From assembly GCA_008632985.1 (NCBI GenBank), contig QPGO01000031.1, positions 310,001-374,000 on the forward strand: a stretch of DNA of 64,000 nucleotides, written 5' to 3'. Positions 2,880 to 61,140 of the stretch are shown piece by piece; the stretch's first letter is position 1; each line of letters starts with the position of its first letter. This stretch comes from Psammoneis japonica (Eukaryota). The notes beneath the pieces are model-generated. The model saw only the letters and a list, made by a program, of their open reading frames with translations. It was not told the DNA's origin and did no database searches. Made by a program: the position numbers and the translations under genes.

Positions 2880-4200
2880 CATTGCCGGCACATCGGCAGC
2901 CTGGGTCATCATGCAGCATTTCAGTGATCCCATTTGAGCATTGATTTGTGTTGAGCTCAAGCAGCTCCTTAAAACAACATTGCCAACTGAACCCCAGCCT
3001 GCCAATCAAATGGTTTGGCTGACTGCATGCAATGCACAGCTGCCAACAAGAGTTGGTGCATCACGGCGACGTGTCACAGCCTTTAAATGTCACAAAGGGC
3101 GTGACAAAAATGACCTTTTGTCTGCATGCATGCTGCATCATGAATTCACAGCGGAGTGGTTCATCGCAACCATTGGGCAGGAGGCCAGGGGTTCGAAACC
3201 CTGAGTGGGAGTTGTCTGCAGCAACGTTGATCACTGTCGAACGCGCAAAACTCTGTGCAGTTCTGCATGTTCCTTCGTGCGCACCCACACTGTTCTGCCA
3301 AAACCGTGCAGTGTCAGCACACGTTAGAGTAAAGAGCCGTGTGGACGCGTGACACATGGGGAGGAGTGCAACACACAGCTGCTGACAAGAGTTGATGTGT
3401 CACGGCGACGTGTTGCAGCCTTTAAATGTCACAAAGGGCATGACAAAAATGACCTTTTGTCTGCATGCATGCTGCGCGCAGTGCTGGTTAACCAACTGGA
3501 GCTGGCCACTTGACAGCGAAGCTCTGTCATTGATGGGTTCTTTGAGAATTTCCATTTTCTGGTTGAGAAACATCAGAAATTCAAATCTCCAATCAACAAC
3601 TTTGCACAAAATGTTCTCAGAGGCAGATTGTTCTGCCACACTGCCCTGGATGTTGATGACAAATTGCCCACATGGAAAAAAATTCCGCACAGCCCAAGAA
3701 TCTGCCGCGTTTTGCTGACACCTTTGACCTGCACATCAAGAAAGCAGGTCATTTTAAAAGTGACAATCATGTCAGTGTTGTTTTCTACAGCTGCACCTGC
3801 TTTTGTAAATTCAGGAGGATCAACAGTTTTGACCACACTTTGCACAACGCGGCCATCATCATGTGCCCCATCCGGGGCTGCAGCACTCCCCTGCACACTT
3901 CTTTTTGATGCCTGATCCTTGAAAGCATGATGTCCCACAAATGTTGTCAATCATTCTTTGGATGGCTCTTTGAGTTGGTCATTGTTTGCACAACCACTGT
4001 GCGCATTCCGGGCAAGAAACTGTCAAGCACACATGTGAGAGTGGTTGATGCAGAATGACCTGTTGCCAAGACAATCAAGAACCATTGACAACATGGTTTG
4101 CAAAGAGCACTGTCAAGGTGTGACACATTGGGGCATCATGCAAAATGAGTGCAATCTGCAGCACTCCTGGCTGTGCTTTTGCAGGGCAAAGGCTCAGTCA
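2880..4200 (-). pseudogene. Hypermutated third copy of the sulfotransferase-like gene, interrupted by a TRIM
   Basis: Nucleotides align to 11250-12090, e.g. ctcaagcagctccttaaaacaacattgccaactg vs ttcgagtagctccttaaaataacattgccgactg. Remnant peptides CCFKELLELNTN and FFPCGQFVINIQG. Confidence 0.85.
3028..3476 (+). mobile_element. TRIM-like miniature LTR element: 110-bp direct repeats, polypurine tract, tRNA-like internal segment
   Basis: Direct repeats at 3028-3137 and 3367-3476. GGGGAGGAG lies immediately before the second repeat. The flanks tgca/cgca may be a 4-bp TSD. The host pseudogene resumes after it. Confidence 0.7.
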
Positions 4201-4619
4201 TGTCATTTTTTTCTGTGAATGGTTGAAGATGAGTTGCTGCCCTGAGACAGCTCCTGCAAGTGAAAATTCATCAACAAAATGAACAAAGTGGGTGCACCAA
4301 AAATGAGTGTCATGAAGGTGACACATTTTCTGCAGCCAGCACATGTTTTCCTCATTTGAAAACTTTTCAGTTGTGAAGCAATTCTCTCCTGTGAATGTGT
4401 GAATGTTCCTTGTCAAATGTCTGCTGTGGATGACCTGAGTGGCTTTGTTTTGGGACAAGGCTTCTCCAATTCAAGATGATGATGCTGTGCAAATGCAGCC
4501 TGCTGGGGGTGTTGCACATCCCATGTCCACATGATGCAGGCCCTGCAAACATGTTCATTGCCCCCCACCATTTGCAGCAAGAGTGCAGTTTTTTTGTTCC
4601 CCCACTGTGGCCTGCCACC

Positions 4620-22260: not shown

Positions 22261-23535
22261 AGGAGGAATTGCCACACAGTGTCCTTCTGCAGGGGACAAG
22301 AAAGCCTGCCACACCCCAATTCCTCCTCAATTGTCAACATTGACGACCTCGGAACAGCACACTCATCATGGTCGATGGCTTTTTTTTTTTCCACACAAAA
22401 AGCACGGAGAGAACGTGGATGACGGACAAGCAAAAAGCAAAAATGTTTAGTTGAATTGTTCCTTTCACACAGAACTTTCACGGAGTCGTCCGAGCATGAC
22501 TGCAAACTGACGATGGAGTTGCGCTCGCTTGCTGGCACAGCAGCTTGTGTTGCTTGAGGTGACAGACAACTGCAAATGGAGGCTTTACAAGCTGCAGACA
22601 GTGCCCCAAGTGTTCCATCTTCATTGTGGCTTTTTTGATGTGAGTTGCTGCTGAGGACAGAGGGAGATGACAGCTCCCTTGGCAGGAGCCTTTTTTCTCT
22701 TGTTTTCTTGAAGCAGCAGCACTGCCTTTTGCTGGCTTTGAGTTTGCATGCACTGCCCACCCTGTGGAAAAAGTTTTTTGTCATTCTCTTTTCTGCCTTG
22801 TTTTGTCACCTCCTCTCATGTGTTGTCAGAGCAGGCATGGCGCACCACCAATGGCACTGAGGAGGCAGCTCTCTTCTCGTGCACCGCTCCGCTGCTCGAG
22901 GCGCGACACAGAAGCTCTCAAACAAGTTTTTTGCCAAAAAGGTCACAGGCATGGATCCTCTGGTGGGGCTGTTGGTCTCCAAATGCAGACATTGCAACGG
23001 GTTCTTGGTGCCCCCAGCCGAGAGAAGTGTTGCTTTTCGACTTTGTGTGTGGAACAGGTCAAGAGGCAGGTGCTGTTGTCCTCTGTTGTTTGCGCGTGCC
23101 TGCGCTTTGAAATTCGATCTGTGCAAATTTCGCGCATGGCGTGCCGCCTTGATCAGGCTCTCCGGAGCCTGGGGGTTGGGGCCTCGGTGAGCGCCGGCCA
23201 CCGCGTGCATCAGCACCAAAACCTGCGCAGGCCCTTTCTGCTTGGGGGCAGGACATCATTCAATTATGGACGATGAAAGAACATTTGTTGATGACTTTTC
23301 AGTCACGATCAAAAAATGTCCGACAGTTTCACGTGACCCCTGACACTTGAGTGATCCGATGACGCGACGTTAAATGTTGTGAGACAACAAAAGCAGCGGC
23401 TTGACCGGCTTTTGGCCTTTCTTCTGGTGCATTTTTCACTGGGGGTCTACACGGGAGGATGGAAAAAATTGAAAACAAAAAATGCAGGGGCTGTGGAGTT
23501 GCAAAAACACAAAAAACACTCGACCTCCTTCAACC

Positions 23536-25647
23536 TCACACATCTTCCGATGGGAGAGGTTGGATGCGACGCGATCTTTTCTTCGGTCCTTGGGAGCGGT
23601 CGACCTTGCGGCGCTTGGCATCACTAGATTGAGCCTTGGAAGCATCGCACAATTGTCTGAGTGACACAGCACCTCTCTCCTCGTCAATCAGCCTTGCAGA
23701 TTCCTGGAGTGCAGCGGCACGGTCTGAAAAACCACGCACTCGCTCAGACCGTTTCAGAATCAAGCCATGCAGGTGTGAACGACGACTGAGCTGCACAGTG
23801 ACCCCACCCTGCCAATTCTTTTTGCTCACTCCTTTGTGCTGTTCCAACTGAAACTCCAGGTGCTCCTCCAACAATTTGGTCATTGTCTTTGGCATTTCTT
23901 TTGGAAAGTGTGGTTGAGCAGCACCTGACGGCGGCGGAGGCAGATGCTGAACGATGCGCGAGCGAGTTGGATTCGAGTCCAATGCGGCACGTGTCTGAAT
24001 CGCATTCCGACCACTCACAGCCATTCTGATGCTCTGCATCTGCTCACGTTGCTGCTGTTGTTGCTGCTGGTTTTGCCTCAGAATGATGTCAGTGAAATTT
24101 TGAACTTCTGCTGACAGTCGATCCATTTTCCCAACCAGAACCTGTGTGTCGGTGCGAACCGAGGAGAAAGCTGTCTGCGCAGCAATGTTCAGATTTTGAA
24201 TCTCGTCTTCTTCTGCAGTGTCCATGTCAGCCAACTCTTGAAGCCTGTCCCTTGCCCACTCAATGCACCTGCCGCCAAAAACACGAACCAACAGACGGGA
24301 CACTTCGTGCTGCGGATGCTCCGTGACCCAGTGGATGCCGTCTTGGCACAGGACGCGAGCGAAAAAAGGTAAGGTCCCACATAAAAAGTTTGTGCCGCAT
24401 GGCCACTTACGACCAACATTGTGTTGCTGTTTCCATGCAGGCAGTCTTGGCCACATCATCTCTGCCAACTCAGCATCAGCAACGTTTGGTTTTCCGGGAA
24501 CTAGTTCGCCGAAGGATGTGTTGGTACGAGGGACGTAGTGAACCTTCTCCCCATGCAGCTTAGAGAACCCGGCGGCAATCAACTGCACTTGTGGAGGGAT
24601 CTCAGGCAAGTGTGAGACGTCAAGTGAATCTTTTCCATGTTTCGTCTGCTGCTCAACATTTTGCTTGGTCGCCCCGCCCATGTTGCTGGAATCGATGCCG
24701 GCGGTGCGAAGGTGAGTGCACTTTGCCCACGACGTCTTTGTTGCCCTGTACACCCGTTGGTGTGCCTTACGGTGCGTGTCTAATGTTTTCCAACCCACCA
24801 GTTCATGCTTGTGCCAGTCCGGGAAACCGTCATGTTGATGCATGAAGTGGATTTCCGCATCGCTGTGAAACCTGCAGGCAGCGACGGCGGCGTTCATGCC
24901 GGTTCCGCATCGCTTCCAGTCGCGGTGCCGCCACATGCCTGCAACTCTTTTTTTGTGGGAACCTCGTTTGCCTGTAAACCGTTGCTCAATCAGAGCTGTC
25001 ATTGGACGTGCGACCGATTCGTTTGGGTTGCCGGGGCCGTGAGTTTCGTCACAGTGAACATCCGCACAGCGTGTAAGTCGGAGCTGATCGCCTCGTATCA
25101 TGGTCTGGCTGCAGCTGGTCCATGACACTACCAAGTTCTTCCAAGCAGCAGATTGAATAATGTGATTCAATGTCTCATCCTCAGCAACACGAGACAGAGT
25201 GTCCGCAGGCAGCTTGTCATGAGCTGATGCAAACGCAGTGAGCAAATTTTGGGTGTGTCGCTCCTTGTGTGCCACCAGAGCGACGTCAACTGCCTCTGAT
25301 CTCACAACGAATTTTGGATTGGGAGGTTTGTGCTCCTCCCAAGATGAGTGATGCTGCAGTGACCAAATGACACGCTTGGCCGACTTCGGCGTGACGTCTC
25401 GTTTCGACACTGCCTCCAAGAAGTGCCGGTCGACCTGGTCTCGCGTCAAGTAAGGCGGCCCCGACAGAGCCGGCGATTCATCCACCCACCTTTTGCATGC
25501 ATTCCACTCAGTGACATGAGTGCCATCCACCTTGGGTGGTGTGATGGTTTGGGCCAACAAGTCTCCCATGGAGACCTGAGACGCCATCTTGGGTCTGTTC
25601 TGCTCATTGTGATAGCCTCGAGGGATCGTCTTTTGGGGTGCACCCAC
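23536..25647 (-). CDS. Crypton/Ndc10-like tyrosine-recombinase-fold protein with a GCR1_C-like C-terminus, copy 1 (hypermutated)
   Basis: Motifs RGDQLR, RHRDWKRC, THLRTAG, SHLPEIP...AAGF and HYVPR recall Crypton/Ndc10 domain II. Very few Tyr and excess His/Cys. Confidence 0.7.
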   Translation of the reverse strand: MGAPQKTIPRGYHNEQNRPKMASQVSMGDLLAQTITPPKVDGTHVTEWNACKRWVDESPALSGPPYLTRDQVDRHFLEAVSKRDVTPKSAKRVIWSLQHHSSWEEHKPPNPKFVVRSEAVDVALVAHKERHTQNLLTAFASAHDKLPADTLSRVAEDETLNHIIQSAAWKNLVVSWTSCSQTMIRGDQLRLTRCADVHCDETHGPGNPNESVARPMTALIEQRFTGKRGSHKKRVAGMWRHRDWKRCGTGMNAAVAACRFHSDAEIHFMHQHDGFPDWHKHELVGWKTLDTHRKAHQRVYRATKTSWAKCTHLRTAGIDSSNMGGATKQNVEQQTKHGKDSLDVSHLPEIPPQVQLIAAGFSKLHGEKVHYVPRTNTSFGELVPGKPNVADAELAEMMWPRLPAWKQQHNVGRKWPCGTNFLCGTLPFFARVLCQDGIHWVTEHPQHEVSRLLVRVFGGRCIEWARDRLQELADMDTAEEDEIQNLNIAAQTAFSSVRTDTQVLVGKMDRLSAEVQNFTDIILRQNQQQQQQQREQMQSIRMAVSGRNAIQTRAALDSNPTRSRIVQHLPPPPSGAAQPHFPKEMPKTMTKLLEEHLEFQLEQHKGVSKKNWQGGVTVQLSRRSHLHGLILKRSERVRGFSDRAAALQESARLIDEERGAVSLRQLCDASKAQSSDAKRRKVDRSQGPKKRSRRIQPLPSEDV

Positions 25648-26366
25648 CTCACTGTCAAAAGAAAAGAGGTTTTTGAAATCAAACGCTCACTTGTGGCGTT
25701 CGACAAGTGGAGTCGTTTCGAATCATGTTGACATTCGAGTGGGAAGAAAGAACATTTCGACAAGTGGATTTTGTGTCTTGTCCTGTTCTGAAGGTTCTTA
25801 TCTTCACTGACCACAGGCCCATCCGGGGTCCGGGAACCGGTTCTGGGGGTGGTTCCGGCGCCGGCCTCCTACGGGCAGGAACCACTGAGGACTCCCCCCG
25901 GTTAGCGCGGTTAACCCGTGACGTCAGGGGGAAGCGCGCCCCCCAATCAGCGGTGGTCATTCCTGTTAACTGGTGTCGCGCGACCAGGCTCTCCGGAGCC
26001 TGGGGGTCAGGGCCTCGGTGAGCGCCGGTTGCCGCGTGCATCAGCACCAAAACCTGCGCAGGCCCTTTCTACTTAGGGGCAGGACATCATTCAATTACAG
26101 ACGATGAAAGAACATTTGTTGATGACTTTTCAGTCACGATCAAAAAATGTCCGACAGTTTCACGTGACCCCTGACACTTGAGTGATCCGATGACGCGACG
26201 TTAAATGTTGTGAGACAACAAAAGCAGCGGCTTGACCGGCTTTTAGCCTTTCTTCTGGCACATTTTTCACTGGGGGTCTACACGGGAGGATGGAAAAAAT
26301 TGAAAACAAAAAATGCAGGGGCTGTAGAGTTACAAAAACACAAAAAACACTCGACCTCCTTCAACC

Positions 26367-28478
26367 TCACACATCTTCCGATGGGAGAGGTTGGATGCGA
26401 TGCGATCTTTTCTTCGGTCCTTGGGAGCGGTCGACCTTGCGGCGCTTGGTGTCACTAGATTGAGCCTTGGAAGCATCACACAATTGTCTGAGTGACACAG
26501 CACCTCTCTCCTCGTCAATCAGCCTTGCAGATTCCTGGAGCACAGCGGCACGGTCTGAAAAACCACGCACTCGCTCAGACCATTTCAGAATCAAGCCACA
26601 CAGGCATGAACGACGACTGAGCTGCACAGTGACCCCACCCTGCCAATTCTTTTTGCTCACTCCTTTGTGCTGTTCCAACTGAAACTCCAGGTGCTCCTCC
26701 AACAATTTGGTCATTGTCTTTGGCATTTCTTTTGGAAAGCATGGTTGAGTGGCACCTGACGGCGGCGGAGGCAGATGCTGAACGATGCGCGAGCGAGTTG
26801 GATTCGAATCCAATGCGGTGCGTGTCTGAATCGCATTCCGACTGCTCACAGCCATTCTGATGCTCTGCATCTGCTCACGTTGCTGCTGTTGTTGCTGCTG
26901 GTTTTGCCTCAGAACAATGTCAGTGAAATTTTGAACTTCTGCTGACAGTCGATCCATTTTCCCAACCAGAACCTGTGTGTCGGTACGAACCGAGGAGAAA
27001 GCTGTCTGCGCAGCAATGTTCAGATTTTGAATCTCGTCTTCTTCTGCAGTGTCCATGTCAGCCAACTCTTGAAGCCTGTCCCTTGCCCACTCAATGCACC
27101 TGCCGCCAAAAACACGAACCAACAGACGGGACACTTCGTGCTGCGGATGCTCCGTGACCCAGTGGACACCGTCTTGGCACAGGACGCGAGCGAAAAAAGG
27201 TGAGGTCCCACATAAAAAGTTTGTGCCGCATGGCCACTTACGACCAACATTGTGTTGCTGTTTCCATGCAGGCAGTCTTGGCCACATCATCTCTGCCAAC
27301 TCAGTGTCAGCAACGTTTGGTTTTCCGGGAACTAGTTCGCCGAAGGATGTGTTGGTACGAGGGACGTAGTGAACCTTCTCCCCATGCAGCTTAGAGAACC
27401 CGGCGGCAATCAACTGCACTTGTGGAGGGATCTCAGGCAAGTGTGAGACGTCAAGTGAATCTTTTCCATGTTTCGTCTGCTGCTCAACATTTTGCTTGGT
27501 CGCCCTGCCCATGTTGCTAGAATCGATGCCGGCGGTGCGAAGGTGAGTGCACTTTGCCCACGACGTCTTTGTTGCCCTGTGCACCCGTTGGTGTGCCTTA
27601 CGGTGCGTGTCCAATGTTTTCCAACCCACCAGTTCATGCTTGTGCCAGTCCGGGAAACCGTCATGTTGATGCATGAAGTGGATTTCCGCATCGCTGTGAA
27701 ACCTGCAGGCGGCGACGGCGGCGTTCATGCCGGTTCCGCATCGCTTCCAGTCGCGGTGCCGCCACATGCCTGCAACTCTTTTTTTGTGGGAACCTCGTTT
27801 GCCTGTGAACCGTTGCTCAATCAGAGCTGTCATTGGACGTGCGACCGATTCGTTTGGGTTGCTGGGGCCGTGAGTTTCGTCACAGTGAACATCCGCACAG
27901 CGTGTGAGTCGGAGCTGATCGCCTCGCATCATGGTCTGGCTGCAGCTGGTCCATGACACTGCCAAGTTCTTCCAAGCAGCAGATTGAACAATGTGATTCA
28001 ATGTCTCATCCTCAGCAACACGAGACAGAGTGTCCGCAGGCAGCTTGTCATGAGCTGACACAAACGCAGTGAGCAAATTTTGGGTGCATCGCTCCTTGTG
28101 TGCCACCAGAGCGACGTCAACTGCCTCTGATCTCACAACGAATTTTGGATTGGGAGGTTTGTGCTCCTCCCAAGATGAGTGATGCTGCAGTGACCAAATG
28201 ACACGCTTGGCCGACTTCGGCGTGACGTCTTGTTTCGACACTGCCTCCAAGAAGTGCCGGTCGACCTGGTCTCGCGTCAAGTAAGGCGGCCCCGACAGAG
28301 CCGGCGATTCATCCACCCACCTTTTGCATGCATTCCACTCAGTGACATGAGTGCCATCCACCTTGGGTGGTGTGATGGTTTGGGCCAACAAGTCTCCCAT
28401 GGAGACCTGAGACGCCATCTTGGGTCTGTTCTGCTCATTATGATAGCCTCGAGGGATCGTCTTTTGGGGTGCACCCAC
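26367..28478 (-). CDS. Crypton/Ndc10-like protein, copy 2 (hypermutated)
   Basis: Near-identical 703-aa ORF; the differences are transitions at TA, CG, CA or TG sites. Confidence 0.7.
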   Translation of the reverse strand: MGAPQKTIPRGYHNEQNRPKMASQVSMGDLLAQTITPPKVDGTHVTEWNACKRWVDESPALSGPPYLTRDQVDRHFLEAVSKQDVTPKSAKRVIWSLQHHSSWEEHKPPNPKFVVRSEAVDVALVAHKERCTQNLLTAFVSAHDKLPADTLSRVAEDETLNHIVQSAAWKNLAVSWTSCSQTMMRGDQLRLTRCADVHCDETHGPSNPNESVARPMTALIEQRFTGKRGSHKKRVAGMWRHRDWKRCGTGMNAAVAACRFHSDAEIHFMHQHDGFPDWHKHELVGWKTLDTHRKAHQRVHRATKTSWAKCTHLRTAGIDSSNMGRATKQNVEQQTKHGKDSLDVSHLPEIPPQVQLIAAGFSKLHGEKVHYVPRTNTSFGELVPGKPNVADTELAEMMWPRLPAWKQQHNVGRKWPCGTNFLCGTSPFFARVLCQDGVHWVTEHPQHEVSRLLVRVFGGRCIEWARDRLQELADMDTAEEDEIQNLNIAAQTAFSSVRTDTQVLVGKMDRLSAEVQNFTDIVLRQNQQQQQQQREQMQSIRMAVSSRNAIQTRTALDSNPTRSRIVQHLPPPPSGATQPCFPKEMPKTMTKLLEEHLEFQLEQHKGVSKKNWQGGVTVQLSRRSCLCGLILKWSERVRGFSDRAAVLQESARLIDEERGAVSLRQLCDASKAQSSDTKRRKVDRSQGPKKRSHRIQPLPSEDV

Positions 28479-28819
28479 CTTGCTATCAAAAGAAAAGAGG
28501 TTTTTGAAATCAAACGCTCACTTGTGGCGTTCGACAAGTGGAGTCGTTTCGAATCATGTTGACATTCGAGTGGGAAGAAAGAACATTTCGACAAGTGGAT
28601 TTTATGTCTTGTCCTGTTCTGAAGGTTCTTATCTTCACTAACCACAGGCCTATCCGGGGTCCGGGAACCGGTTCCGGGGGTGGTTCCGGCGCCGGCCTCC
28701 TACGGGCAGGAACCACTGAGGACTCCCCCCGGTTAGCGCGGTTAACCCGTGACGTCAGGGGGAAGCGCGCCCCCCAATCAGCGGTGGTTATTCCTGTTAA
28801 CCGGTGTCGCGCGACCTGA

Positions 28820-29668
28820 GGCTCGGTCTACAGGCGGTGAACCGCGCCGGATCGGATCGCCGGATCGGATCGCGTCAGAATTCCGTTAGTCGACAGGTGG
28901 AACCGGATCGGATCGCGGATCGGATTCGACATTTTGATGAGTCGCAAAACGACGTAAGTTTCAAGATTCCAAATTCTCAAGAACAACAAAGCACTGAAAT
29001 AGCGAACAACAGAGAGAGTGTGGCCATGATGCTTCACATCTTGTCATAACGAGACAATATGACGACAGAACTATGCTGTTATTACTGCTTTACATACTTA
29101 CTTGACCGCATCATTGAGCATCATTGTCACTCAGTGTTTGCAGCACGCTGAGGAAGAAAAAGCTATCACTTTTGCAATTCAGAAACTGACGCTATGTTTT
29201 CGTATTGAAATTTCGAATTACATAATAAATACTTGTTATTTTGCTTATTTAATGTTTCTCCAACAAATCTTTACGGCATTATCGGTTTGACAAGCTATTC
29301 TATTGCCATACGACCTTTTTCATCTCCATTTCAAGCATGGGAAGAGTAAGGCTGTAATGCTAAGGAAGTTCTGTGCCCTTATGGCTGAATGTTATGCCGC
29401 CCTGTATCATAATCGTGTGATGTTGCGCCATTGTCGTGATGACGGCACGGAATCTTCCAAATTCGATCCGACATCCGATCCGGATTTTCGGATCGGACGG
29501 TCTTCGGAGCAAAATATTTTACTCCGAAGACCGTCCGATCCGAGATGGCGGATCAGTCCCACGAAGGCCACGGATCGACTTTTTGACTCGATGGACTAAT
29601 ATTTTAATGGGTTATGAAGGAGTCGATCCGGCGATCCGATCCGGCTCGGTTCACCTGTAGACCGAGCC
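28820..29668. mobile_element. Non-autonomous PIF/Harbinger-type MITE
   Basis: ~45-bp TIRs GGCTCGGTCTACAGG...CCTGTAGACCGAGCC, a 3-bp TSD TGA (28817-19 and 29669-71), many subterminal CGGATC/GATCCG motifs and an AT-rich non-coding core. Confidence 0.85.
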
Positions 29669-34886: not shown

Positions 34887-37174
34887 ATGTCATCGAAACG
34901 CAACGCAAAGAACTCACCAGCTTCGATTGACATCCCGTGCAGTTCAAAAGTTCCGATTTCCATCAATGGGCGAAGCCTGACTCTCACCTGTCCTCATGGG
35001 GCTCGTATTGAAGTTGTAGCTCGCTTGGTCGGTGAGGAGGACGCCTTGTTGACTGCGGAATTCTCCTGTATCGATGACCCTTATGAGCTCCGTATCGTTC
35101 GCGATGCCGAGTCCGCCAACTCGACGCCAACACAGCGTTCGAGTTATGAAGTGCCAAACACCGGCTACAAGCCACAACGACGACTGAAAACGCGCATGCA
35201 GGACGGAGCGGGCATTCCCTCCGCTCAAGCCATTCCGCCAAGAACAAACACCGAGCATTCAAGAAACAGCGGCAATGACTCTCCTCTTGACGCTGTTCTC
35301 GTCCATGATCCTGATTCTGCTGATTCATTGGCGTCTGATCAAGCCATCGCCCCTGTTCCAGCCATTCCGCCACTAGTTCCCACCGTACATGCTGGAGAAA
35401 ATGACATTGCGACTCTTCCTGAAGCCGTTCCAGTAAGCGATGCTTGTGAATTGGATTCATTGGCGTCTGATACAACAAGTGAGAGGACAGTGGACTGGGA
35501 ATCTACTTCATACGAATCAAGCCTTGCACTCTCATCTTGTATGGACTCGAGGATCACCTATGGTCAGCACGGATGGGTACGCGTGCTTCGTGATGATAAC
35601 AGATTCCACTGGGAGGTCAATAACCCTCCCGAGAGGTTCGATATTTCCTCGGCCTTTGTGCGCAATCTCGAATTCAAGCCAGGCGACGATCCGAGAATCC
35701 GGGCAGGAATTATCAGCCTTGTACCTGCCAGCGAAGGAGCTGTGGACACCAAGATAAAGAATGTTGAAGGCCGTGACTTGGTATCATACTCTGACATTGT
35801 CCGAGCACAAATCAAAACCTTTGAAGAAAAGGCCCAGTGGTTCCAGGATACTTGCGCTCAGCTTTGTGTCGAGTGGAACGAAGGTCACGTGCGTATGAAC
35901 ATCCGTCGTGCATTCTTGTTGGGAGATTCCGTCGATGCCGTCATGAGTCTGAGTCGCAAGGATTTGCGCAAGTTGTGGAGATTTGAGTTTATTGGTGAGA
36001 TGGGTATTGATGCTGGTGGACTAGCCAGAGAATGGTTTCAGCTCGTTACAGAAGAAATCTTTGATCCTGACATGGGTCTTTGGCAATCCAGTGCGGTCAA
36101 CCAAATGTCCATGCAAGTCAATCCTGCTTCAGGTGAGTTCAGAAAGAAAATATCGTTTAGCTAGCTACTTCTGTCTTCTCTACACTCTAATGTACCTGTT
36201 TATTCTGCTTTTTTCCACAGAATTTTGTTGCGAGGACCACTTGGTGTACTATCGCTTCTTGGGTCGCGTTATGGGAAAGGCCCTCTTTGATCGCCAGTTG
36301 TGTTCGGGTCACATGGTGCAGTACATTTACAAGCACATGCTCGGCTGGCCCGTGACATTCGAAGATCTGAAAAGCGTGGACGAGGGATGTTACAACGAAC
36401 TTAAGCAGCTCCGAGATATGGAGGCAGCTGGTGAAGACTTGTCCATGATGTGTCTGGACTTTACGATCACAACCGAAGTTTTGGGAAAGAAGAAGGAGAT
36501 TGAGCTTATTCCTGGAGGAGCCGATGTTGCATTGGACAACGACAACTTTCCCGAGTACCTCGAGGCTTACCTTAAATACAAGTTGCTCAATGCTGTCAAA
36601 CCCCAGATCACTGAGTTGCTCTTGGGGTTCTTCGATGTCATTCCAGAGCCTCTTCTAACCATTTTCGACTTTGAGGAATTACAGTTGCTCATGTGCGGGC
36701 AACCCGAAATCGATATGGATGATTGGAAGACCCACACGGAGTACTCCGGCGAATACGATGGAGATCCAGACCATCCTGCCTGCCATTGGTTCTGGGAAGT
36801 TGTTACGGACTTTGATCACGAAATGAAGGCCCGTCTCCTTCAGTTTGTCACGGGAACTTCGGGTGTGCCGTCGCGAGGCTTTGGTGTGTTGCAGGGAAAC
36901 GACGGAAATATTCGAAAATTCACAGTGCACGGCGTTCCAGTTGGCGTCTGCCTTTACCCTCGCGCACAGTAAGTACTGTAGAGGAAATGGGGAGAGATTT
37001 CGTTCTCATGTTGATGCGACCTCTCGCCTAACTTTCACGCTTGATCTTTTGTTACGTCGTAGCACCTGCTTCAATCGGATTGATCTTCCAATGTATGAAT
37101 CTAAGGAGGAGCTGGAGAAGAAGTTGAGGCTTGCTGTTACGATGGCTTCGAAAGGCTTCGACATTGAGTACTAG
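34887..37174 (+). CDS. HECT-domain E3 ubiquitin ligase (NEDD4-like HECT), intact; introns 36133-36220 and 36969-37062
   Basis: DAGGLAREWF, YRFLGRVMGKALFD and LLQFVTGTS, plus the spliced catalytic PRAHTCFNRIDLP. Confidence 0.93.
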
Positions 37175-37969
37175 CAACCCGGCAGTGCTTTTTTGTGCGT
37201 ATTTGGAGCTTAAGCAATTAGAGAAATAGTTGCGTGTTCTGGCCAAGTGCCACTGCACCGTAAGACTCACTCCGTCTAGTAGGTTTCTTGGAGCAGAAGC
37301 AATTCTTTATTCGAAAATTTTCAATCCATGTCTTCCCAAATTAACCCTTGGGCACAGCAAGAATTGCAGAGGAAATTTAGAGGTATTATCTAATACGACT
37401 TCTTTGTCTAACTCTGGAGACCGCTACTTAGTCATGGCACCTGTACCGGTACAATCGGGTCCATCTTCCGACGCACGAATCACCGAAGGAACTGGAGGAG
37501 ATGCTGAGGCGTGCGATGATGTGGTTGTGATGATCTAAATTTATAGCAGTTTGTCTTGCAAGCTTGGCTCTACAGAGTTTTAGGTGGAAATCGTCGGCAT
37601 TGTAGGACCACCTGTTTGTTTACCTATTGTCACAAAATGCCGCTCGTGTTGAACGTTGAAACCAGACTCTGCAAAGGAACAACGAGTAGAACCGGTCTAC
37701 TCTGCCAGCACTCTCTATTCTCTCTAGAGAGAGTCTCTACTCAAGCTTGAGTAGACCTACTCTCTACACGCTCTAGCTAGAGAGAGGAGTTCACGTTCGT
37801 TAGCATTTGCCGCACGGTGTCTGGCTGCGCTGACGTTCAAAGTCCATGACGTCATGATGGCTAAAACGCGTTCCTTTCAGTCGTGGGTCGTGGCACAAAA
37901 ACGTACCGGTGCACTGCAATGCCATGGAAACATTGAGAATGGCGTCAAAAAGTAAAATGAACATCCATC

Positions 37970-40150
37970 ATGACGCCACAACGAAAACCTTGGAGACGGA
38001 ACCTTGTGCTGAGATTGTTTGCGCAATTAAGGAGAGCATGCACCATGTGTTTCAAGAGACCTGACAACACTGTTGTGTTTCGGGTCACGACACCCGCCAG
38101 TGTGAAACCGGGTGAGGAATTCAAAGTCTGTGCCGGCATCAACATGATTGCTGTCAAATGTCCTTCTTCCTTGAGTGCAGGAGAAAGCTTCCAAATGAGG
38201 GTGCCACAGAAGCTTCTGTTGGATCCCCCGAATGTCCAAGCAATTGACGGAGACACCCACTCGGTGTCCATTCCCAAAGGCGTGTTGCCGGGACAACGTT
38301 TTCTTGCTTCGATCCGTGGACAGTGACATGTCCTGAAAATGCCACGCAAACTAAAGTGCATTTTCTGCCTTCAAAGTGTGACTCGCAGTTTTATGAAGTT
38401 GAGGTTCCAGAGGGAGTGGAGCCGGGAGAAAGGTTTCTCGCTTCGGCTGGTGGTGTCTGTGCACTGGTGACTTATCCCAAGAATGCATCTGCCGGCACAC
38501 GGGTGCGCTTTGTTGTGCCAAAAAGCGCCGGACAAATGATGGATGTAGAGGAAATGCCACCAGAATCCATTCAACTCTCCTGCCACAAGGCCGGTGGGTG
38601 GGCGCGCACAATTAGACTCTCGGATGTGAAATTTCAGTGGATCCGGGACAAGCACTTGTGCTTGAAAACGAAGGCCTGCGTTCGTAAAATCGAATGTGGG
38701 ATGGAAGACAATTCCGTTCTTCACACTGGAAGCTTGTGTCTTGCACCCATCAGCAAAGAAATGATTGACTCAAAGATTTGTGGGAGAGACGGCTGGGTCG
38801 TTGCCTCGCACGCGGACATTGCCAAAGTTCAAGGAAAACCGTTTGAAGAAAAGTGCCAATGGTTTCAAGACACCTGTGCACAGCCATGTGTCGAATTGAA
38901 CGAAGGGCACGTGCATGTGAATGTCTCCCGTGCATTTTTGTTACAAGACTCGGTAGATGCAGCAATGAGTCTGAGTCGCAAAGACTTTTGCAAGTTGTGG
39001 AGATTTGAGTTCATTGGTGAAATGAATGTTGAAGCCGGCGGACTGACAAGAGATTGGTTTCAACTCGTTTCGGAAGACATGTTTGATCCTGACATGGGTC
39101 TTTGGCAATTCAGTGAGGCCAATCGCAACCTCATGCAAATGATTCCAACTTCGGGTGAGTTCACATGAGAGGCATGCGCAGCTCCTGAGTTCTTCTTTGT
39201 TGGCACTTATCCAGACAACTCTTCGACCTTTTTCTTCATCAATGTTAGAGTTCTGCTGCAAGGACAAGTTGGTTCACTGCAGATTCTTGGATCGTGTCAT
39301 GGGAAAGGCCCTTTTTGATCGCCAGCTGTGTTCCAGCCACATGACGCCGCACATGCACAAGCACGTGCTCGGCTGGCCCGTGGCATTTGAAGACCTTAAA
39401 TTCGTGGACAAGGAGCATTGCACCAGTCTCAAGCAGCTGGAGACGGTGAAGAGTGGCGAAGACTTGTCAAAGCTTTGTCTGGACTTTACGACCACGACAG
39501 AAGTTTCGGGAAAGACGAAAGAAATTGAGTTGATTCCTGGAGGTGCCGACGTTGAATTGAACAATGACAACTTCCCCGAACACCTTGAGGCCTGTCTCAA
39601 ACACAAGCTGCTCGACAACATCAAGCCCCAGCTCTTTGAGTTGCTCTTCGGGTTCTATGATGTAGTGCCCGAGCCTCTCTTTGCCGTTTTCGACTTTGAG
39701 GAATTGGAGCTGCTCATGTGTGGGCAGCCCGAAATCGACATGGATCAATGGAAGACCCGCGCAGAGCACAAATGGCGAGCACCGTGGAAATCCTGACCAT
39801 CCTGTTTGCCGTTGGTTTTGGGAGGTTGTGACCGATTTCGAGTGCGAAACGAAAGTCAGCCTCCTTAAGTTTGTCGCAGGAAAGTCAAGCACCCCGACAC
39901 TAGCTTGCAGGAAAACGATGGAAACATTCGAAAATTCACAGTGCACGGCGTTCCAGTTTCCAGTTGGTGTCTGCCTTCACCCTCGTGCACAGTGAGTTTG
40001 GTCGATGTAAAAGCAGCGCTCCTTTGCCTCTACGCTTGTGACCTCTTTTCTAACTGCTGCACTGACTGTGCTTGATTTCTTTTTGCATCCAACATGCATA
40101 ATGTACAGTGGCACCAGCTTCAATCAGACAGAGCATGTACGAATGAAATC
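37970..40150 (+). pseudogene. Tandem HECT E3 ligase paralog, frameshifted and Tyr>His/Cys hypermutated
   Basis: Collinear with the intact gene and has the same intron positions. Frameshifts at ~38325, ~39770 and ~39900. EHLEACLKHKL vs EYLEAYLKYKL. Confidence 0.9.
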
Positions 40151-40432
40151 ATCGAAGGAGGAGCTTCAATTCAGACGAGAAGGTTGCCGCTTGTGCTGCA
40201 GCGTGATTGTAAAAGTACATAAAATTCGATAGTAGATTGCCGTTGAAAAAGTATATTTATTTGGTGACCTATACATCATAGATCGTCCCCTTTACTACAT
40301 AGAGCGCATTCCAAAAAATTCGAAAGAAGCCAACACTCAGGCCAAGCAAACGCTCCATGCGCCATGAGGCGTGAAGGTGAAGGAGGCGACAGTGATAATA
40401 CTGAAGCAAACTGCCAAACCTGACGTACCATA

Positions 40433-41083
40433 ATGTCGACAATAGCACCCGCATTTGCAGCCGCACCACTCATTCACAGCAGGCATGTCACCGCCTTTGC
40501 CGCAACGATCTTATCTCAACAGTTTCAACAAGCGACATGCTCACGGCCACGTGTCACCTTGTATGCAAACCGTGAACCGCAGCAAGAGGAGGATGTGATC
40601 TTTTCAGTGTTGGACAAGATCACACAGGTCTTTTCAGCTCCAACACCAGGATTTAACTCGCTTGCATTGGGATACCCACTGGCGCTCTTGGCGTCTACGG
40701 CGTTTTTACCCTTGACCACTTCGATTTTTTCAATGGGTTTCTTCGTTGCTTACGCGAGTTTGGGTCGAAGTATTGTCGTGGGAACCGAGAACGATCAAGA
40801 CTTTGAGAGTACGAATACTTTGGATTTGGCATGCTTCTTGGGGGCGATTGCGTCGGCGGGAATTCTTTCGCCGAGTGGTTTCGGAGATGGAAATGGCATG
40901 CCAATTACGTTGTTGTCGGGATCCAGTCTACTTGGCGTTCTTGGAGTTGTGCTAGTCGGATTGGCTGTGGCATCTACAGTCCTTTCTCCTAAAGAAGTGG
41001 GTGAAGACTTCTCTTCTACCTCTGTCGATAAAAGGCTTTTAGACATGTGGGATGAGCGGTTCAGACAAGACGATGAATTGTGA
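40433..41083 (+). CDS. Hypothetical membrane protein, possibly plastid-targeted
   Basis: 216-aa ORF with several hydrophobic segments and an Ala/Thr/Ser-rich N-terminus. Confidence 0.65.
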   Translation: MSTIAPAFAAAPLIHSRHVTAFAATILSQQFQQATCSRPRVTLYANREPQQEEDVIFSVLDKITQVFSAPTPGFNSLALGYPLALLASTAFLPLTTSIFSMGFFVAYASLGRSIVVGTENDQDFESTNTLDLACFLGAIASAGILSPSGFGDGNGMPITLLSGSSLLGVLGVVLVGLAVASTVLSPKEVGEDFSSTSVDKRLLDMWDERFRQDDEL

Positions 41084-41776
41084 CATAATGCCTTCCGGCC
41101 CGATGTGGTCAGTAGGCTTAGCTACTTCATTAGTGTGAAATAGATGTATAGACAAGGGCTTTGCGCCGGTGATTTTGAAACGTCTTTCTTCTTCCTTGGG
41201 TTGCTGGAAACAGGGCGGCTGGGCAATTATTGATACAGTATTATACGTACTGAGATTCTCTCCGAACTAGTCGTAGAGACATTGCTGCATTTTACCGATG
41301 GCTACAGTAAGCTGCTAGCAACTTAGATTGACTCTCCATTTCTTGTCGAGTTCTTCACCTACCGATACCTACCTTGCTTTTGATTCCTAGCTACTGCACT
41401 TGCCGACAACTCTCTTCAACCTAAACATGCGACCTACCTCAGGGAAACATGCAAGAGCAAGTTACAAATGGTGAAACATCGAGCAAGTAACTGTTTCGCC
41501 TATTTCAAATGAGGAAAAAGCTGTTTATAGAATTTTCTTTTCGTCAAATCATACAACTACTTCTCCTGTAGAGACGGACCCCATCAAGGTTATACATATG
41601 TCGCGTGTCGTTTCTACAGCATCAGGATTGCGTTCCAAACAGCTCGTCGTAACTATTTTCCCAAGCCGTGGTTACTTTAGTTATGACCTTCGTTTGACGG
41701 GAGTGAGGACCTTAAAAGGCACCGTCTTACTTGAATAATTCCCCTTCCCCCCTCTCAGTGGTCTCTCTTTGAAGAA

Positions 41777-43671
41777 CTATTTGCTCTCCTTGCCAAAAAA
41801 CTTGGAAAGAAGAGACACAAGCGACATGACTGACTGTTCCAACCCCAACGGCACAGTCTCTCCAGAGTGTTTCAATGTTGTCAACGTTTGGTGAAAGACC
41901 TCTGCAACACGCAAGGCTCGTTCCCCCGCCTTGGCACCAAAGAGGCCAGCCGCGTACTTTTCCGGAAAGCCGTCCTTGGTAAAGAGACCGTGAAGAAACT
42001 CTGTGCAGGCTCCAATTTCATCCACGTCACTACTCGCAATGGCTCCCAAGAACTCTTCTTCATCGTGTTTCATTTCTCGAAGCATTTGTGCCTTGGCCTT
42101 TTTGTCCAAATGGGAGTAACCCTTTCGAATCCGGACGGGTTCGTATCTTGGCCCATAGTCGACAAAGATTTCCGTCTCGGTAGTTCCGTCCGCTGGAATA
42201 CAAAGTTCCTTATTGCCAGTGACAATGCCAAGCAAGTAGTGTACATTGCCCTCGGGATCACTCTCGGCTCGAATCGTTGCCACTTGTTCCGTCCCGCCGC
42301 CGCACTCGTTGACATAGGAAGGAATGTGGCAACGAGCAAGCTCGTGCACGTCGCCCGTGACATCGTCTGTAATGTCAAGCTCATAGTCTTCCTGTTTGGC
42401 TTCAAAGGTCCATTCTTCGCATTTGAAGGAATGAATGTAATTCTTCAAAAAGTAAACGCACGTTTCCTTCTTGTCCTCCTTGCAAAAGGGAGCGTAGACG
42501 CCCAAGTCCAACAACTCACCAGCCTCCAACACAAACTTGTTGTTGTTGGACATTCCACCAAGAGACAAGACCGGAGTAGCCTTGACAAAGACACCATAAC
42601 CAGCATCTGGTATGGTGGACTCTTTGACGTTGAATTCCAAATGATAACCTCGAAAAGTGAGTGTCAAACGAGGCAGTTCGACAATGCCAACTTGCACCAT
42701 TTTCTCAGTGCGGAATTGGGGTGTGAGCCACATCCAACTCGATTTCGTTGCAATCTTTTTAGGAACGGGTTCACCCATTAATGTTGCAAACGACAGACAA
42801 GCACCCGCCGCCAATTCGTAGGAAATCTTGCCAGTCTCGGGGACACTTGTCCCACAGACATTGGCAACAGAATTGACGTGGTATAACGACTCTTTATCGT
42901 ACTCAATCACAACCACATCCTTGCTGTCTTCTTCTTCATCATCACTAGTACTATACTCCAAACCTTGAACGGTCCCATACACGATTTTGGTACGTCCTTC
43001 CACGTCCGTCCATTGCTGCAACGTACCCAGTCCAATCAAGGCCGAGTAGTTGCGACTTTTATCGCGCTTGGTTTTCTTGTTGTTGCGTTGCTGCGCATAA
43101 TGACGAGGAGGAGGCGCCTTTCCATACACCCTGCGGTACGACTGAACGGTACAAACGTGGTGTTGCATCATACCGTCCAAGTAGTCTCCGTCATCGAATT
43201 TTACCTGACATACATAGACACATCAAAAAACAACTTTTTGTTGTAAGGCAAACGTGTGTCAACAATCAACAAAAGCAGATAGAGTACTCTGTCATGTCCA
43301 TACGCACTTACAGCATAAAGAATAGCTTTACCGCGATGCGTCTTTTTCTCAATGGTTCCCCAATACCATTCGTTATTGTTCCACTTGCAAAACACACGAG
43401 ATCCCACCTCTCGCTGATTCTCTGGATGGCTTTCATCATTGGCAACAAGTAGTGAAGAGGGCGTCGTGATGACGGCCTTCCTCTTTGAACCACCTGCCTG
43501 GGACGGACTTGCATGTGTTGACTGGGCTACTCGGCCCCCGTCCCTCTTGGTATTTCCTCTCCGAGCGCTAGCAAACGGCGTCATGGTGACTTCTGGAGCG
43601 TTCGTTGGATGATGTTGTGTGATGTTGAATGTGTGTTGTGTGTCGGATCTTTTGGACTTTGGACGCGCCAT
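41777..43671 (-). CDS. Tudor-like plus divergent SET-like domain protein; intron 43205-43311
   Basis: Spliced VGSRVFCKW...WYWGTI...LYA|VKFDDGD is Tudor-like. VKESTIPDAGYGVF, SYVNE and EIFVDYGPRY are SET-like. Confidence 0.65.
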
Positions 43672-43819
43672 TTTTTCGAGCGATCATTCTGTTTTGGGTT
43701 GCTGTGCTTCATGCTCAATGCTCACAGATAGATGTAGATAGAACAGAACGGTGCTTTGCTGGTTCTACTCTAGAGTGGCAGCTACTTAGCAGCCACTGGC
43801 TAGCTGCCACTAGAGTGGC

Positions 43820-45880
43820 TGTTCATGCCAATCTCTTTCGCATTGCATTGACATTTTTGGGGGGTCCGGTTTCCCCAAACAACGAACGCTGGCATCTGTT
43901 TTCTGCTGACTCTGGGTTGTCAATTGTCTTTGCGCAGTCCACCCCGCCATGTTCTTGTGTCTGGCATCTCCTGCTGGCTCAAACACTGCATGCATGAAGC
44001 ACAGCACAACTGCTGTGTTCACCCCAGGCAAGGGAAAGAGATCTGCAGCAAAGCATCACAACCATCTTTTTGCGCATCATTGTCAACCAGCCAACTCATC
44101 TTCACCACGGCAACACATTTTTCCCCAAGAATGAGTGACACACGCAAGTCTCTGGTCATTGTTGTGGAAATGAAAGTTGTTTCCTTGTCAACAACCTGGA
44201 CAACTGCACATTTCTCTTGATGGCCCCAAATGCTGCAAGCACCCCGCTGTTGAGGCCACCCCTGTTGTTTTTTTTCTGCCACTGGGAGATGGTTGTTTGG
44301 GGCATTGTTGTTGGTTGGCATGTCACAAGCTTTGCTGTGGACCAACCAGCCTTCCTCTTCACAATGTCAACCAACCCCTGTGCAAAAAATTGAAAGCAAT
44401 TGCGCTCAAGCTTCCAAGTGGGATGACACAGTGTGCTGCAAAGCACCAAGGTTGCTTTGCAAAACAACTGTTGGTGTTTGCATTGGGGACACTAGCTTCT
44501 CCCCAAAGAAACCATTTTGCAGTTGTTTCAAAAAAGCCAAGATTGGACCACTGCAAAAGGATGCTGTGAAATTCGCCAGTTCAGCAAGCTGCACATGGGG
44601 ACACATTGCTCTGTTTGTGGGGAAAAAAGCTGAGAAAAAGAATCAAGAGAAACACATGCAAAGGAGCTGCAAAAGCAAGGGGCATTGGCAGATTTGACAG
44701 TGTGCGCACCATGATTGCACATCATCTTTTTCTCCTGGTGCAGTGCAGACAAGGTGAGATGATGGACAAAGAAAAAGAAAACAAAAGTTGAGAAAATCAG
44801 GTGTGAGCCTTCTTTGACCATGTTCCAACCATGCCAGGATTTCTTCTCTTTGCACCCAAAATCAATGACTTGTTGCAGTCAACTTTGCCAAACTTGTTTG
44901 CTTTTTTGGCTGCTGCTGAAGAACATTGATGGTTGATGAGGTGGCCATCACAGCTGTTGGATGCTCCCAGATTTGTGTGGGGTGCAATTCTGTGCAAGCG
45001 CCCACAGGGTTGTCCCTTGTGAGAGTGTGGCGGTGTGCACTTTGGGGTGCTGGGCCATTCCGCCAATGACAGAGAAACCTGAGGCATCGGAAGGGAGATG
45101 CTCTGTTGTGCCAGCGTTCGCGAGGTGTGGTGCCACCATGGTGTTGCATCTCTTTTCATTTTCCTCCCAATTTTAGTGTCTTTTCTGCATGAAATTCCAC
45201 ACGATTCAGTCAGCAATGTCCAAGTGTCAGTTCCTTCTGCACAAGTTTCATGTGCATTTCTACGCGTTCAGCCAGAATTTCGAGTCGACGACTGTGCTGG
45301 GTTCATCCTCTTGTTCTTCTCACCAACGCACTTCCTCTGAGTTTTCTTTCCAACAGACTGCAATTTATGATGGATGTTCCATGGCATTCCCAAGTGGGCT
45401 TTCATGAGTCTTCCAAGTGAGCAGCATTTCCAAGTCGTGGTGTTTGCTTCTCTCGCACTTCGATGCTGCAGCTTCCGCGCACAATTTCTCTGCACTGTTC
45501 TGCGCATGATGGAATTTTCACCCAACAATCCCGATCATCATTTCCTTTCCTTTGTTGGGGTCCTTGTTGGACTTTCCTGGATGTTTTTCATCCCAGGAAC
45601 TTCTCTCACATTCTGTTCAAGCACATTGTCTTCAGAGACAGACGCGTGCTCAGTTTTCTGCAATGTTCATTTTTGGTGTCTCTCCCACATGGTGTGGCTG
45701 GGCTCATCCATTCTTTGAGGCACAGCAGCTGTGGTTGCCGTGCAACAAGCATCCAGTTGGTTGCCATTTTGACTTTGACAATGAGTTGAACAGCTGTCAA
45801 ATTGTCCCTGTCGCTCTTTGTGAGTGCTGGGGAGCCTGGGTCTGCTGTGGTCGGCGTTGGTGTGGGTGGCAGCGAGGCAG
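43820..45880. other. TpA-depleted degenerate element of unidentified family
   Basis: Only a few TA in ~2 kb, and Tyr-free His/Cys-rich ORFs in all frames. Confidence 0.55.
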
Positions 45881-46147
45881 CGGTAAAATAGATTTCGTTT
45901 TCGTAGTTTATGTGGGATGGATGAGCATCATGCACTCGGGATTTCGCGCTAAATGTCCCATCGTCATGAGCCATCAACGCGAGAGAAAATCAAGCAAAAA
46001 CTTGCAAAAACATCGCCGGCCCGAGCTCCGAGCTCGCCGGAAAAAGCATACTGAGTCTTACATGCGCAGTTTTCGGTAGTTTTCTCACGTGGCGCCCACC
46101 GACGAAAAAAATCTTCCGAAACAGCCGCAATGCCACACAATTGCTGC

Positions 46148-57247: not shown

Positions 57248-57249
57248 AC

Positions 57250-60200: not shown

Positions 60201-61103
60201 TGCATCCTTTTAGAATGAGCTGCGGCGTTGCCATCTTCTTGACAGACGTGCGCGGTCTGTCTCCAACAAAGACAAGACTTTGAAGAGTGCCATGAAGTCA
60301 TCTGCAATCTGCGTGTGAGAGATGTGCTGACTCTGTTTTGGACATCCCATTTTCTAAAAACCCCATTGTGCACGAATCGTCTTCCCTTTCGAAACTTGGC
60401 ACATTGGCAAGTGGTGGGTGGTGGATGGACTTGTTTCAGAGGTGAAACAATGACTGTCTGCTGTCGGCGCTGACGGCGCACAGAGGAGGAGTGCCGGGAT
60501 GGTTGTCGTTGTCATCGTGAGGGCGGCGACGAGCAGCCGCTCTCTGTCCATGCCGTGTGGCATTGTCTTGAGAGTCCTCCAAGGAAGATGAAGTGACAAC
60601 GGTGGGGTGAGTGATGAGGAAACTTTCACGGAAAGTTTCTTGGACTCTGAATGCCAGCAGCCGCGACACAAGCTGAAACTGTGGAGTGTCAGCTTGTCGA
60701 AGTTCATCAAAGGTAACATCAGAGCATCGCAGATGGTGAAGCATGCTGCGGGTCTGACAAGGTGGTGGTGCAGGGGCGCGAACTCGCAACCAAAGAGGTG
60801 AACTTCGGAACGCACCAAACAGCGACTGCACAAGACCAAACACACAACTTCCACCCCGGTTGTTTGGTGCGAAATCTGACATGTGGCCTTCATTTGTTGG
60901 GTTGATTGGAGCAGTCCACACTTCCTCAGCCCTGCGAATGTCGTCTTGATGCCGCTGCTGCCTGTCCACCCTTCATTGCTTTCGCTTTCGCCGACGCGCT
61001 GCCCCTCTTTGAGATCTCTCACGTTCTTCCTCTGAGCCCCAACCCACAAACCCCACCCGTCTTGACTCGACTGAGGACATGCCAGTGGCGGGGCAGAGTC
61101 GCT

Positions 61104-61140
<37 letters not shown>

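Follow-up and report, generated by a model that had tools for sequence, protein, structure and literature searches.

TpA-specific loss in one of two neighbouring HECT ligase genes points to a probably domain-directed hypermutation in a probable diatom

In a 64-kb stretch of DNA from a probable diatom (contig QPGO01000031.1, called the window below) two HECT E3 ligase genes lie next to each other, of which the first, HECT-A, is intact and the second, HECT-B, is broken. A preliminary description made from the letters of this DNA had noticed that one of the two paralogues is erased of the dinucleotide TA with its neighbour intact, and this observation was borne out, as out of 38 aligned TA of HECT-A only one is still TA in HECT-B. 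In our reading HECT-B probably lies in a gene-sized domain that was mutated in place by a TpA-specific A:T>G:C hypermutation (TpA>CpA or TpG), which would be directed at the domain and act recurrently. The comparisons described below show a process that is restricted to TpA, independent of CpG decay and sharp-edged, sparing HECT-A and acting on copies of mobile elements as well as of host genes.

HECT-A (34887..37174, + strand) runs from an ATG at 34887 to a stop at 37172-37174 and is built from three exons (34887-36132, 36221-36968 and 37063-37174), which were assigned using Pfam and contig splicing. It shows an open frame, a HECT domain (PF00632; Pfam E = 3.1e-67 in exon 2 and 8.5e-10 in exon 3) and the TCFNR motif with the catalytic Cys (codon TGC, 37067-37069), as found in a HECT E3 ligase. 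In the window, which has a GC content of about 0.48, introns are short with GT..AG ends, and the contigs of run X2, which is recorded only as ‘DNA?’ yet gave spliced contigs, skip both HECT-A introns with such ends (36129>36218, cut +3, and 36968>37063). HECT-B (37970..40215, + strand) follows head to tail on the same strand with its ATG at 37970, which is 795 bp beyond the stop of HECT-A. Its exons 1' (37970 to 39154), 2' (39249-39991) and 3' (from 40112) were delimited using Pfam and the alignment to a Skeletonema homologue, and the HECT domain is found in two frames (E = 9e-38 and 7.2e-8). Between 35814-36974 of HECT-A and 38835-39997 of HECT-B the identity is 75.5% over 1188 columns (blastn). 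The first two introns of HECT-A are retained in HECT-B at identical positions, and intron 1' (39155..39248, + strand), which agrees with intron 1 of HECT-A in position and phase, is stripped of TA. As the two genes share these intron positions as well as 6 derived residues at 173 conserved columns, they are native paralogues that arose by duplication at the DNA level. The named relatives of the HECT domain are diatoms with 66-70% identity, namely Thalassiosira pseudonana, Ditylum brightwellii and Skeletonema japonicum. The assignment of the window to a probable diatom is based on these relatives of one gene. The Skeletonema homologue P0131 (902 amino acids) aligns to 38069-40009 of HECT-B including the N-terminal repeated modules, showing that HECT-B was formerly a full-length member of the diatom HECT family and not a fragment.

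Among 1162 aligned bases TA occurs 38 times in HECT-A and 10 times in HECT-B, while the other dinucleotides differ little. Apart from the one TA that is kept, the 38 TA of HECT-A read CA (17), TG (8), GA (5), TT (4) or something else (3) in HECT-B, and TA>CA or TA>TG explains 25 of the 37 lost sites, the remaining divergence of the pair being ordinary. In the opposite direction only two CA or TG of HECT-A face a TA in HECT-B (binomial p = 6e-6). For the 15 dinucleotides other than TA the retention is 43-77% (674/1117), compared with 1/38 for TA (Fisher p = 8e-14). The two large exons of HECT-A have a TA density of 24-29 per kb, which is the background level, against 7-8 per kb in HECT-B, and intron 1 of HECT-A has 8 TA in 88 bp against 2 in 94 bp for intron 1'. 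CpG is still plentiful in the mutated copy, as had been claimed, with 55 in HECT-B versus 58 in HECT-A and symmetric exchanges of CG with CA or TG (20 versus 20). At the protein level the Tyr of HECT-A is lost in HECT-B at all 13 aligned codons, nine being His, three Cys and one Lys. Tyr residues common to HECT-A and at least 80% of the outgroups are retained in 0/10 cases, compared with 121/155 for other such residues (p = 8e-7).

For the polarity of these changes we used 60 of 120 listed homologous proteins as outgroups and a codon alignment of exon 2 to 19 metagenome loci (20 of 53 were taken and one was dropped for a stop), in which a polarity could be assigned to 523 of 738 sites. From the 11 exchanges of Tyr to His or Cys that had originally been cited, nine are clearly derived in HECT-B when compared with the outgroup proteins, namely both Tyr of VYY>VHC, the second Tyr of QYIY, that of CY>HC and those in EY, KY, EY, EY and LY. 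The exchange EAY>EAC has to be reversed, as 56/60 outgroups have Cys at this position and the Tyr was therefore gained by HECT-A, and no clear assignment is possible for the first Tyr of QYIY, where 27 outgroups have His, 19 Tyr and 9 Phe. In CYN>HCT the Tyr column is derived in HECT-B as stated, but the C>H column holds Tyr in 59/60 outgroups and has changed in both copies, so that HECT-A itself carries one TA>TG change. At the gap previously written as ‘EH-NGEH’ HECT-B actually has a +1 frameshift.

The codon alignment with branch-specific counts, which had been suggested as a check, gave a clear context dependence. On the HECT-B branch T>C is found at 10/15 TA sites and at 7/115 other T (p = 1.7e-7), and A>G at 2/16 TA sites and 10/113 elsewhere. 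The corresponding numbers for the HECT-A branch are 0/15 and 5/115 for T>C and 1/16 and 5/113 for A>G, in line with the claim that only HECT-B was altered within the pair. Outside CpG the HECT-B branch shows C>T at 5/56 and G>A at 11/107 sites, and the HECT-A branch has only seven C>T or G>A changes. His and Cys are not ancestral in the outgroups, and the transitions on the pseudogene branch depend strongly on their context. Together the outgroup proteins, the outgroup codons and the tandem repeat described below show that the change in HECT-B ran from TA and that the ancestor was not CG, as proposed in the preliminary description.

The TA-poor block around HECT-B, which keeps its CpG and has sharp bounds (37954..40007), contains 17 TA in 2054 bp versus 85.7 expected from the normal regions of the window (Poisson p = 1.5e-19). 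There are 98 CG in 37960-40010, and the flank at 37000-37960 is normal with 46 TA. Judged from the TA positions, the edges are sharp to about 75 bp. The block includes 636 bp of HECT-B without nucleotide similarity to HECT-A, which show 7.9 TA per kb compared with 7.1 and 8.1 per kb in the homologous exons. No terminal inverted or long direct repeats were found flanking the block. As a control we scanned 53 related metagenome loci (349 kb) for the TA-poor and CA/TG-rich signature and found it in 0/1317 windows of 500 bp, a control only and no proof that relatives lack the process, since repeats assemble poorly in such data.

A second block at 20.8-28.4 kb gives the polarity without any outgroup. 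It contains a tandem duplicate of 2.84 kb (23151..28824, - strand; copies 23151-25991 and 25982-28824) with one open Crypton-like open reading frame (ORF) of 716 amino acids per copy. The only homologues of this ORF carry PF16787 (NDC10_II), a domain that marks Crypton-type elements. The two copies are 97.5% identical and all of their substitutions are transitions (69/69). At 18 doublet sites one copy reads TG where its partner reads CA, while 21 sites have TA in a single copy and 18 TA are shared. Only 9 single differences are found among about 170 CpG, a rate at which about 0.06 independent double CpG changes are expected, and the 18 doublets must therefore have arisen from TA. The TA changes are distributed patchily along the unit. 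From 14 Tyr that are invariant in three homologues the two copies retain two and one, and at two columns one copy has His where its partner has Cys. The comparison of the copies shows that both were mutated independently, in place and after the duplication, and that nearly all of their differences are independent TA changes.

Altogether five TA-poor blocks make up 32.6 of the 64 kb, with 4.05 TA per kb versus 41.7 elsewhere and with CA and TG approximately doubled. The large blocks at 2100-11000, 43820-45890 and 49200-61160 have lost TA (observed/expected 0.03-0.06) and also CG (0.16-0.35), with CA and TG again about doubled, whereas the HECT-B block and the block at 20.8-28.4 kb retain CpG (observed/expected 0.72-0.78). 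As TA is gone and CpG is retained in two blocks, the loss of TA can be separated from the decay of CpG and either precedes it or occurs alone. Non-coding blocks carry the same signature of TA loss as HECT-B. Host genes besides HECT-B are affected as well, as seen for three sulfotransferase genes on the - strand. The broken S2 (2884..4403, identified by tblastn) is located at the edge of a large block and has lost TA and CG, while S1 (11250-12344), which is intact, and S3 (1299-2204) are TA-normal. From the 37 TA of S1 only one is retained in S2, 19 are CA and 14 TG, and from its 50 CG one is retained, 19 are CA and 22 TG, whereas the control comparison of S1 with S3 is symmetric (35 versus 30 TA). 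The broken S2 and HECT-B as a full-length family member thus uphold the earlier suggestion that duplicates of host genes are substrates, too.

The TA that remain in the TA-poor blocks differ in their neighbours. When TA-poor regions are compared with normal regions of similar size, ATAT is found 0 versus 91 times, ATAC 1 versus 205, GTAC 5 versus 109, CTAG 15 versus 56 and TTAA 23 versus 65 times. ATAG is also nearly gone, and CTAG and TTAA persist at 27-35% of the count in the normal regions. This suggests that a purine-TA-pyrimidine arrangement would be the most mutable context. Two residual TA of the window (39209 and 44494) read TG in a contig of run X1, which is a possible sign of ongoing activity.

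HECT-B also carries lesions of other kinds. A +1 insertion is located inside the conserved EYSGEY stretch (39765..39775, about 39770, + strand), where the frame switches between the ORFs 39143-39796 and 39666-39995. Alignment to HECT-A also reveals that within 39900..39957 (+ strand) 10 bp are deleted at about 39903 and 7 bp are inserted at about 39951-39957. The second acceptor is TGG instead of the TAG of HECT-A, and the catalytic Cys codon has become AGC, encoding Ser (40116-40118; acceptor and codon together at 40109..40118, + strand), in a column that is Cys in 31/31 outgroups covering it. Considering the 97 columns that differ between HECT-A and HECT-B and are covered by at least 20 outgroups, 50 are derived in HECT-B, 8 are derived in HECT-A and 39 are ambiguous. 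With three frameshifting indels and the catalytic Cys lost, HECT-B is by its sequence dead and fails as a functional member of the HECT family. At 39749-39750, within a Trp codon that is conserved in HECT-A, the window reads TG and an X1 contig CA, which could be the result of G>A followed by TA>CA or of a 2-bp inversion.

A possible mechanism is that an enzyme deaminates the adenine of 5'-TA-3' in either strand of the DNA, the resulting inosine being read as G, so that the product would be CpA or TpG depending on the strand altered. This chemistry is suggested by analogy with a proposal made for the chlorarachniophyte Bigelowiella natans. The target would be a chromosomal domain, i.e. silent or marked chromatin, in keeping with the reasonable suggestion of a silenced state in the preliminary description, and not sequence similarity to or pairing with HECT-A, which is an unlikely trigger. 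The process would also be recurrent and remove newly arising TA again, as only two possible back-changes from CA or TG to TA exist in HECT-B despite a divergence of about 25%. As consequences Tyr is turned into His or Cys, and TAA and TAG stops as well as TA-containing signals are removed, such as the acceptor changed from TAG to TGG. According to the genetic code TA>CA or TA>TG never turns a sense codon into a stop, and the only change possible at a stop is TAA>TGA. Since no new stops result from the process, HECT-B was disabled by missense changes and indels, and the frames of 716 amino acids remain open elsewhere.

Two other sources of mutation were considered and rejected. Transcription coupling would require a strand bias, and the ratios of TA>CA to TA>TG are 17:8 in HECT-B and 19:14 in S2 (counted on the + strand), which are not significant and opposite to each other relative to the coding strand. 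For WA mutagenesis of the polymerase-eta type AA should be affected as well, and 49/76 AA are retained.

The alternative that has to be weighed most carefully is a homology-triggered process resembling repeat-induced point mutation (RIP) of fungi, in which duplicates would be sensed by pairing and mutated and the intact partners would be the survivors of selection. We regard it as unlikely, even if in three of the window's five TA-poor blocks a sequence is present that has another copy close by, the tandem repeat with its 97.5% identity is altered in both copies, and alterations of an essential copy would be hidden by selection. For RIP in fungi an identity of roughly 80% along about 400 bp is required, but HECT-A and HECT-B are only 75% identical, and the 636 bp of HECT-B without similarity to HECT-A are equally depleted. 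Furthermore, no T>C is found at the 15 TA sites on the HECT-A branch, synonymous sites included, the paralogues S1 and S3 are both TA-normal, and the two back-changes at about 25% divergence suggest repeated action long after pairing was possible. In B. natans the hypermutated insert of a nucleocytoplasmic large DNA virus (NCLDV) is single-copy according to the preprint (10.64898/2026.01.13.699255). The earlier statement that no homologous pairing is involved is therefore favoured by the dissimilar yet depleted 636 bp, the 75% identity and the normal TA content of S1 and S3, while its argument from the single altered copy has lost weight. A composition effect is very improbable as an explanation, be it codon usage, selection against TA (e.g. 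by UA-cleaving RNases) or a derivation from a donor poor in TA, e.g. a virus. TA is indeed under-represented in most genomes, and the background of the window is at 0.45-0.87 of expectation, but the depletion is tenfold and not mild, its edges are sharp within about 75 bp, and both an intron and non-coding blocks show it. HECT-B is moreover broken with its conserved Tyr replaced, and it is native, as shown by the 6 derived residues shared at 173 conserved columns.

The remaining alternatives have even less in their favour. Editing of A to I at the RNA level by an ADAR-like enzyme, followed by reverse transcription and reinsertion, would fit the TA context, as the preference of ADAR for a 5' U is well known and also mentioned in the preprint (10.64898/2026.01.13.699255), and the larger blocks could be retroelements. 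It is hardly plausible and already contradicted by the retained introns, both of which are located in HECT-B at the positions of HECT-A, with intron 1' being depleted as well. In addition, HECT-B is arranged in tandem to HECT-A without flanking repeats, T>C and A>G are both present on one strand, and the tandem copies were altered in place after duplication and in patches. A sequencing or base-calling artefact, in which modified bases at TA would systematically be read as G or C, is scarcely to be expected either. X1 contigs span 37072-39955 and 39929-45334 and depart from the window by only 5 and 3 letters, even if run X1 possibly comes from the source sample itself, HECT-B also has indels and non-TA changes at invariant residues, and the tandem copies show TG versus CA at the same site 18 times, which a systematic miscall would not produce. 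A reversed polarity, in which HECT-A gained TA by RIP-type C>T changes and HECT-B is ancestral, fits one column only (Cys, encoded by TGY, in the outgroups and TAC in HECT-A) and comes close to impossible. It is refuted by the outgroups, which have Tyr at 9/11 of the cited sites, and the TA level of HECT-A equals that of other genes, with seven C>T or G>A changes outside CpG on its branch.

Several observations do not fit easily to a TpA-specific hypermutation directed at the domain of HECT-B. The block ends at about 40007, and TA density is normal in intron 2' and in the small final exon of HECT-B, showing that the hypermutated domain is not exactly the gene. That only one copy is hit is also no rule, since both copies of the tandem repeat were altered independently, and lineages with an altered HECT-A would have been removed by selection, a survivorship bias that weakens the argument from one copy. 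A near-identical partner of HECT-B may once have been present and now be lost or located elsewhere. Nine of the 38 aligned TA of HECT-A read GA or TT in HECT-B, which are no products of TpA>CpA or TpG and may reflect ordinary divergence or changes on the HECT-A branch. CA exceeds TG by 17 to 8 in HECT-B, which is not significant. Finally, the context preference relies on surviving TA, part of which may be new mutations.

A literature search for TpA hypermutation led only to the preprint on B. natans and to nothing for diatoms, and a match for diatom and hypermutation (PMC9258296) is, in its matching text, concerned with immunoglobulins. According to the preprint 124 TA-depleted clusters exist in the 95-Mb genome of B. 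natans (Mettrop et al., bioRxiv 10.64898/2026.01.13.699255). In its mutation-accumulation lines two silent viral inserts, one of them single-copy, acquired 231 new mutations, of which 230 were A>G or T>C and the GC-biased ones were all located at TpA, and an adenine deaminase was proposed as the agent (10.64898/2026.01.13.699255). Paralogues and diatoms are not mentioned in the Results and Discussion of this preprint (10.64898/2026.01.13.699255). As far as described there, B. natans and the window share the restriction to TpA>CpA/TpG transitions, the regional action with neighbours at background level, the TA-depleted and CA- and TG-enriched clusters and the independence of copy number. They differ in lineage, as the window derives from a probable diatom (a stramenopile) and B. 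natans is a chlorarachniophyte, and in degree, with observed/expected TA of 0.03-0.13 in the blocks of the window, which is near saturation, and 0.45 in the NCLDV insert reported for B. natans. Half of the 64-kb window is affected, compared with the 124 clusters in 95 Mb, and its targets include two host-gene paralogues and a Crypton-like element, compared with the viral inserts of B. natans. The older blocks of the window have also lost CpG, unlike those described for B. natans, where the mutations were seen de novo and not known from sequence as in our case, and the normal TA frequency is 4.2% of dinucleotides in the window and 6.0% in B. natans. With this frequency and the diatom relatives of its HECT genes, the window is unlikely to be from B. 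natans.

Fungal RIP (Neurospora etc.) is also transition-only, dinucleotide-specific and regional, disables repeated or foreign DNA and is revealed by dinucleotide indices. It makes TpA from CpA (C>T/G>A), however, and thus runs in the opposite direction to the process in the window, which destroys TpA, and it creates stop codons, which the latter cannot. Fungal RIP needs paired duplicates and alters both of them, whereas HECT-A is spared and the block exceeds the homology by 636 bp; the alteration of both copies is seen in the tandem repeat of the window. The decay of methyl-CpG by deamination has the same products, TpG and CpA, and co-occurs in the large blocks (CG observed/expected 0.16-0.19) and in S2, but HECT-B and the tandem repeat retain CpG (0.72-0.78) while TA is gone. 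APOBEC3 and ADAR in animals have a fixed neighbour preference, a 5' U in the case of ADAR, and are directed at selfish DNA. They act on single-stranded cDNA or double-stranded RNA, whereas in HECT-B an intron-containing chromosomal copy was changed in place. As for a foreign nature of the targets, HECT-B is a pseudogene, one other block contains the Crypton-like ORF and the large blocks are without Pfam match.

Regarding the content of the large blocks, a six-frame Pfam scan of 49201-61200 with stops read as X found no family. The segment 54160-54990, considered as a copia-type reverse transcriptase, gave no Pfam match at E <= 1, leaving a retroelement identity of the large blocks unsupported. 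A Pfam family was found in none of the seven antisense ORFs over HECT-A and HECT-B, and an Rfam scan of 33-42 kb gave no match. Short palindromic CTCTAGAG-type repeats are located at 37719-37789, just upstream of HECT-B, and at about 32690, with their TA retained. An X1 contig connects 32692 to 37762 via similar letters, pointing to a small repeat in dispersed copies. Extra X1 and X2 contigs with at least 90% likeness depart from HECT-A at 35834 and 36996-37054 and retain the Tyr codon of LYP, and they represent either a HECT allele that has diverged or a closer copy, which would be the third. X2 contigs align neither to HECT-B nor to the block at 43.6-46.1 kb, which says nothing on expression. 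A PP-loop/TilS-like gene at 12762-13871 (Pfam ATP_bind_3, E = 5.6e-44) has only bacterial clusters as its nearest ones in the Atlas and is probably organelle-related.

In summary, a process described once before, in the B. natans preprint, is now extended to a probable diatom, in which it is found at far greater density and with substrates beyond viral or mobile DNA that include paralogues of host genes. Tentatively, we propose that diatoms may possess a defence by domain-directed DNA editing that erases TpA, with purine-TA-pyrimidine favoured, from silenced DNA independently of and before CpG decay, and that treats dead or redundant copies of host genes like transposons. As B. natans, a rhizarian alga, shows the same signature, such a system may be of old origin and widely distributed among the stramenopile-alveolate-rhizarian (SAR) supergroup. 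Repeats that are rich in CA and TG and poor in TA and CG could derive from CpG or from TpA, and here the HECT pair and its outgroups show TpA as the source. Blocks without TA only versus those without TA and CG, the preference for flanking bases, the sharp edges and the pairs of altered and unaltered paralogues offer handles on the enzyme and its targeting. For annotation it is important that TA-erased regions keep long open frames, lose their Tyr and escape profile searches. If true, this process would be the mirror image of fungal RIP, disabling genes without the creation of stop codons.

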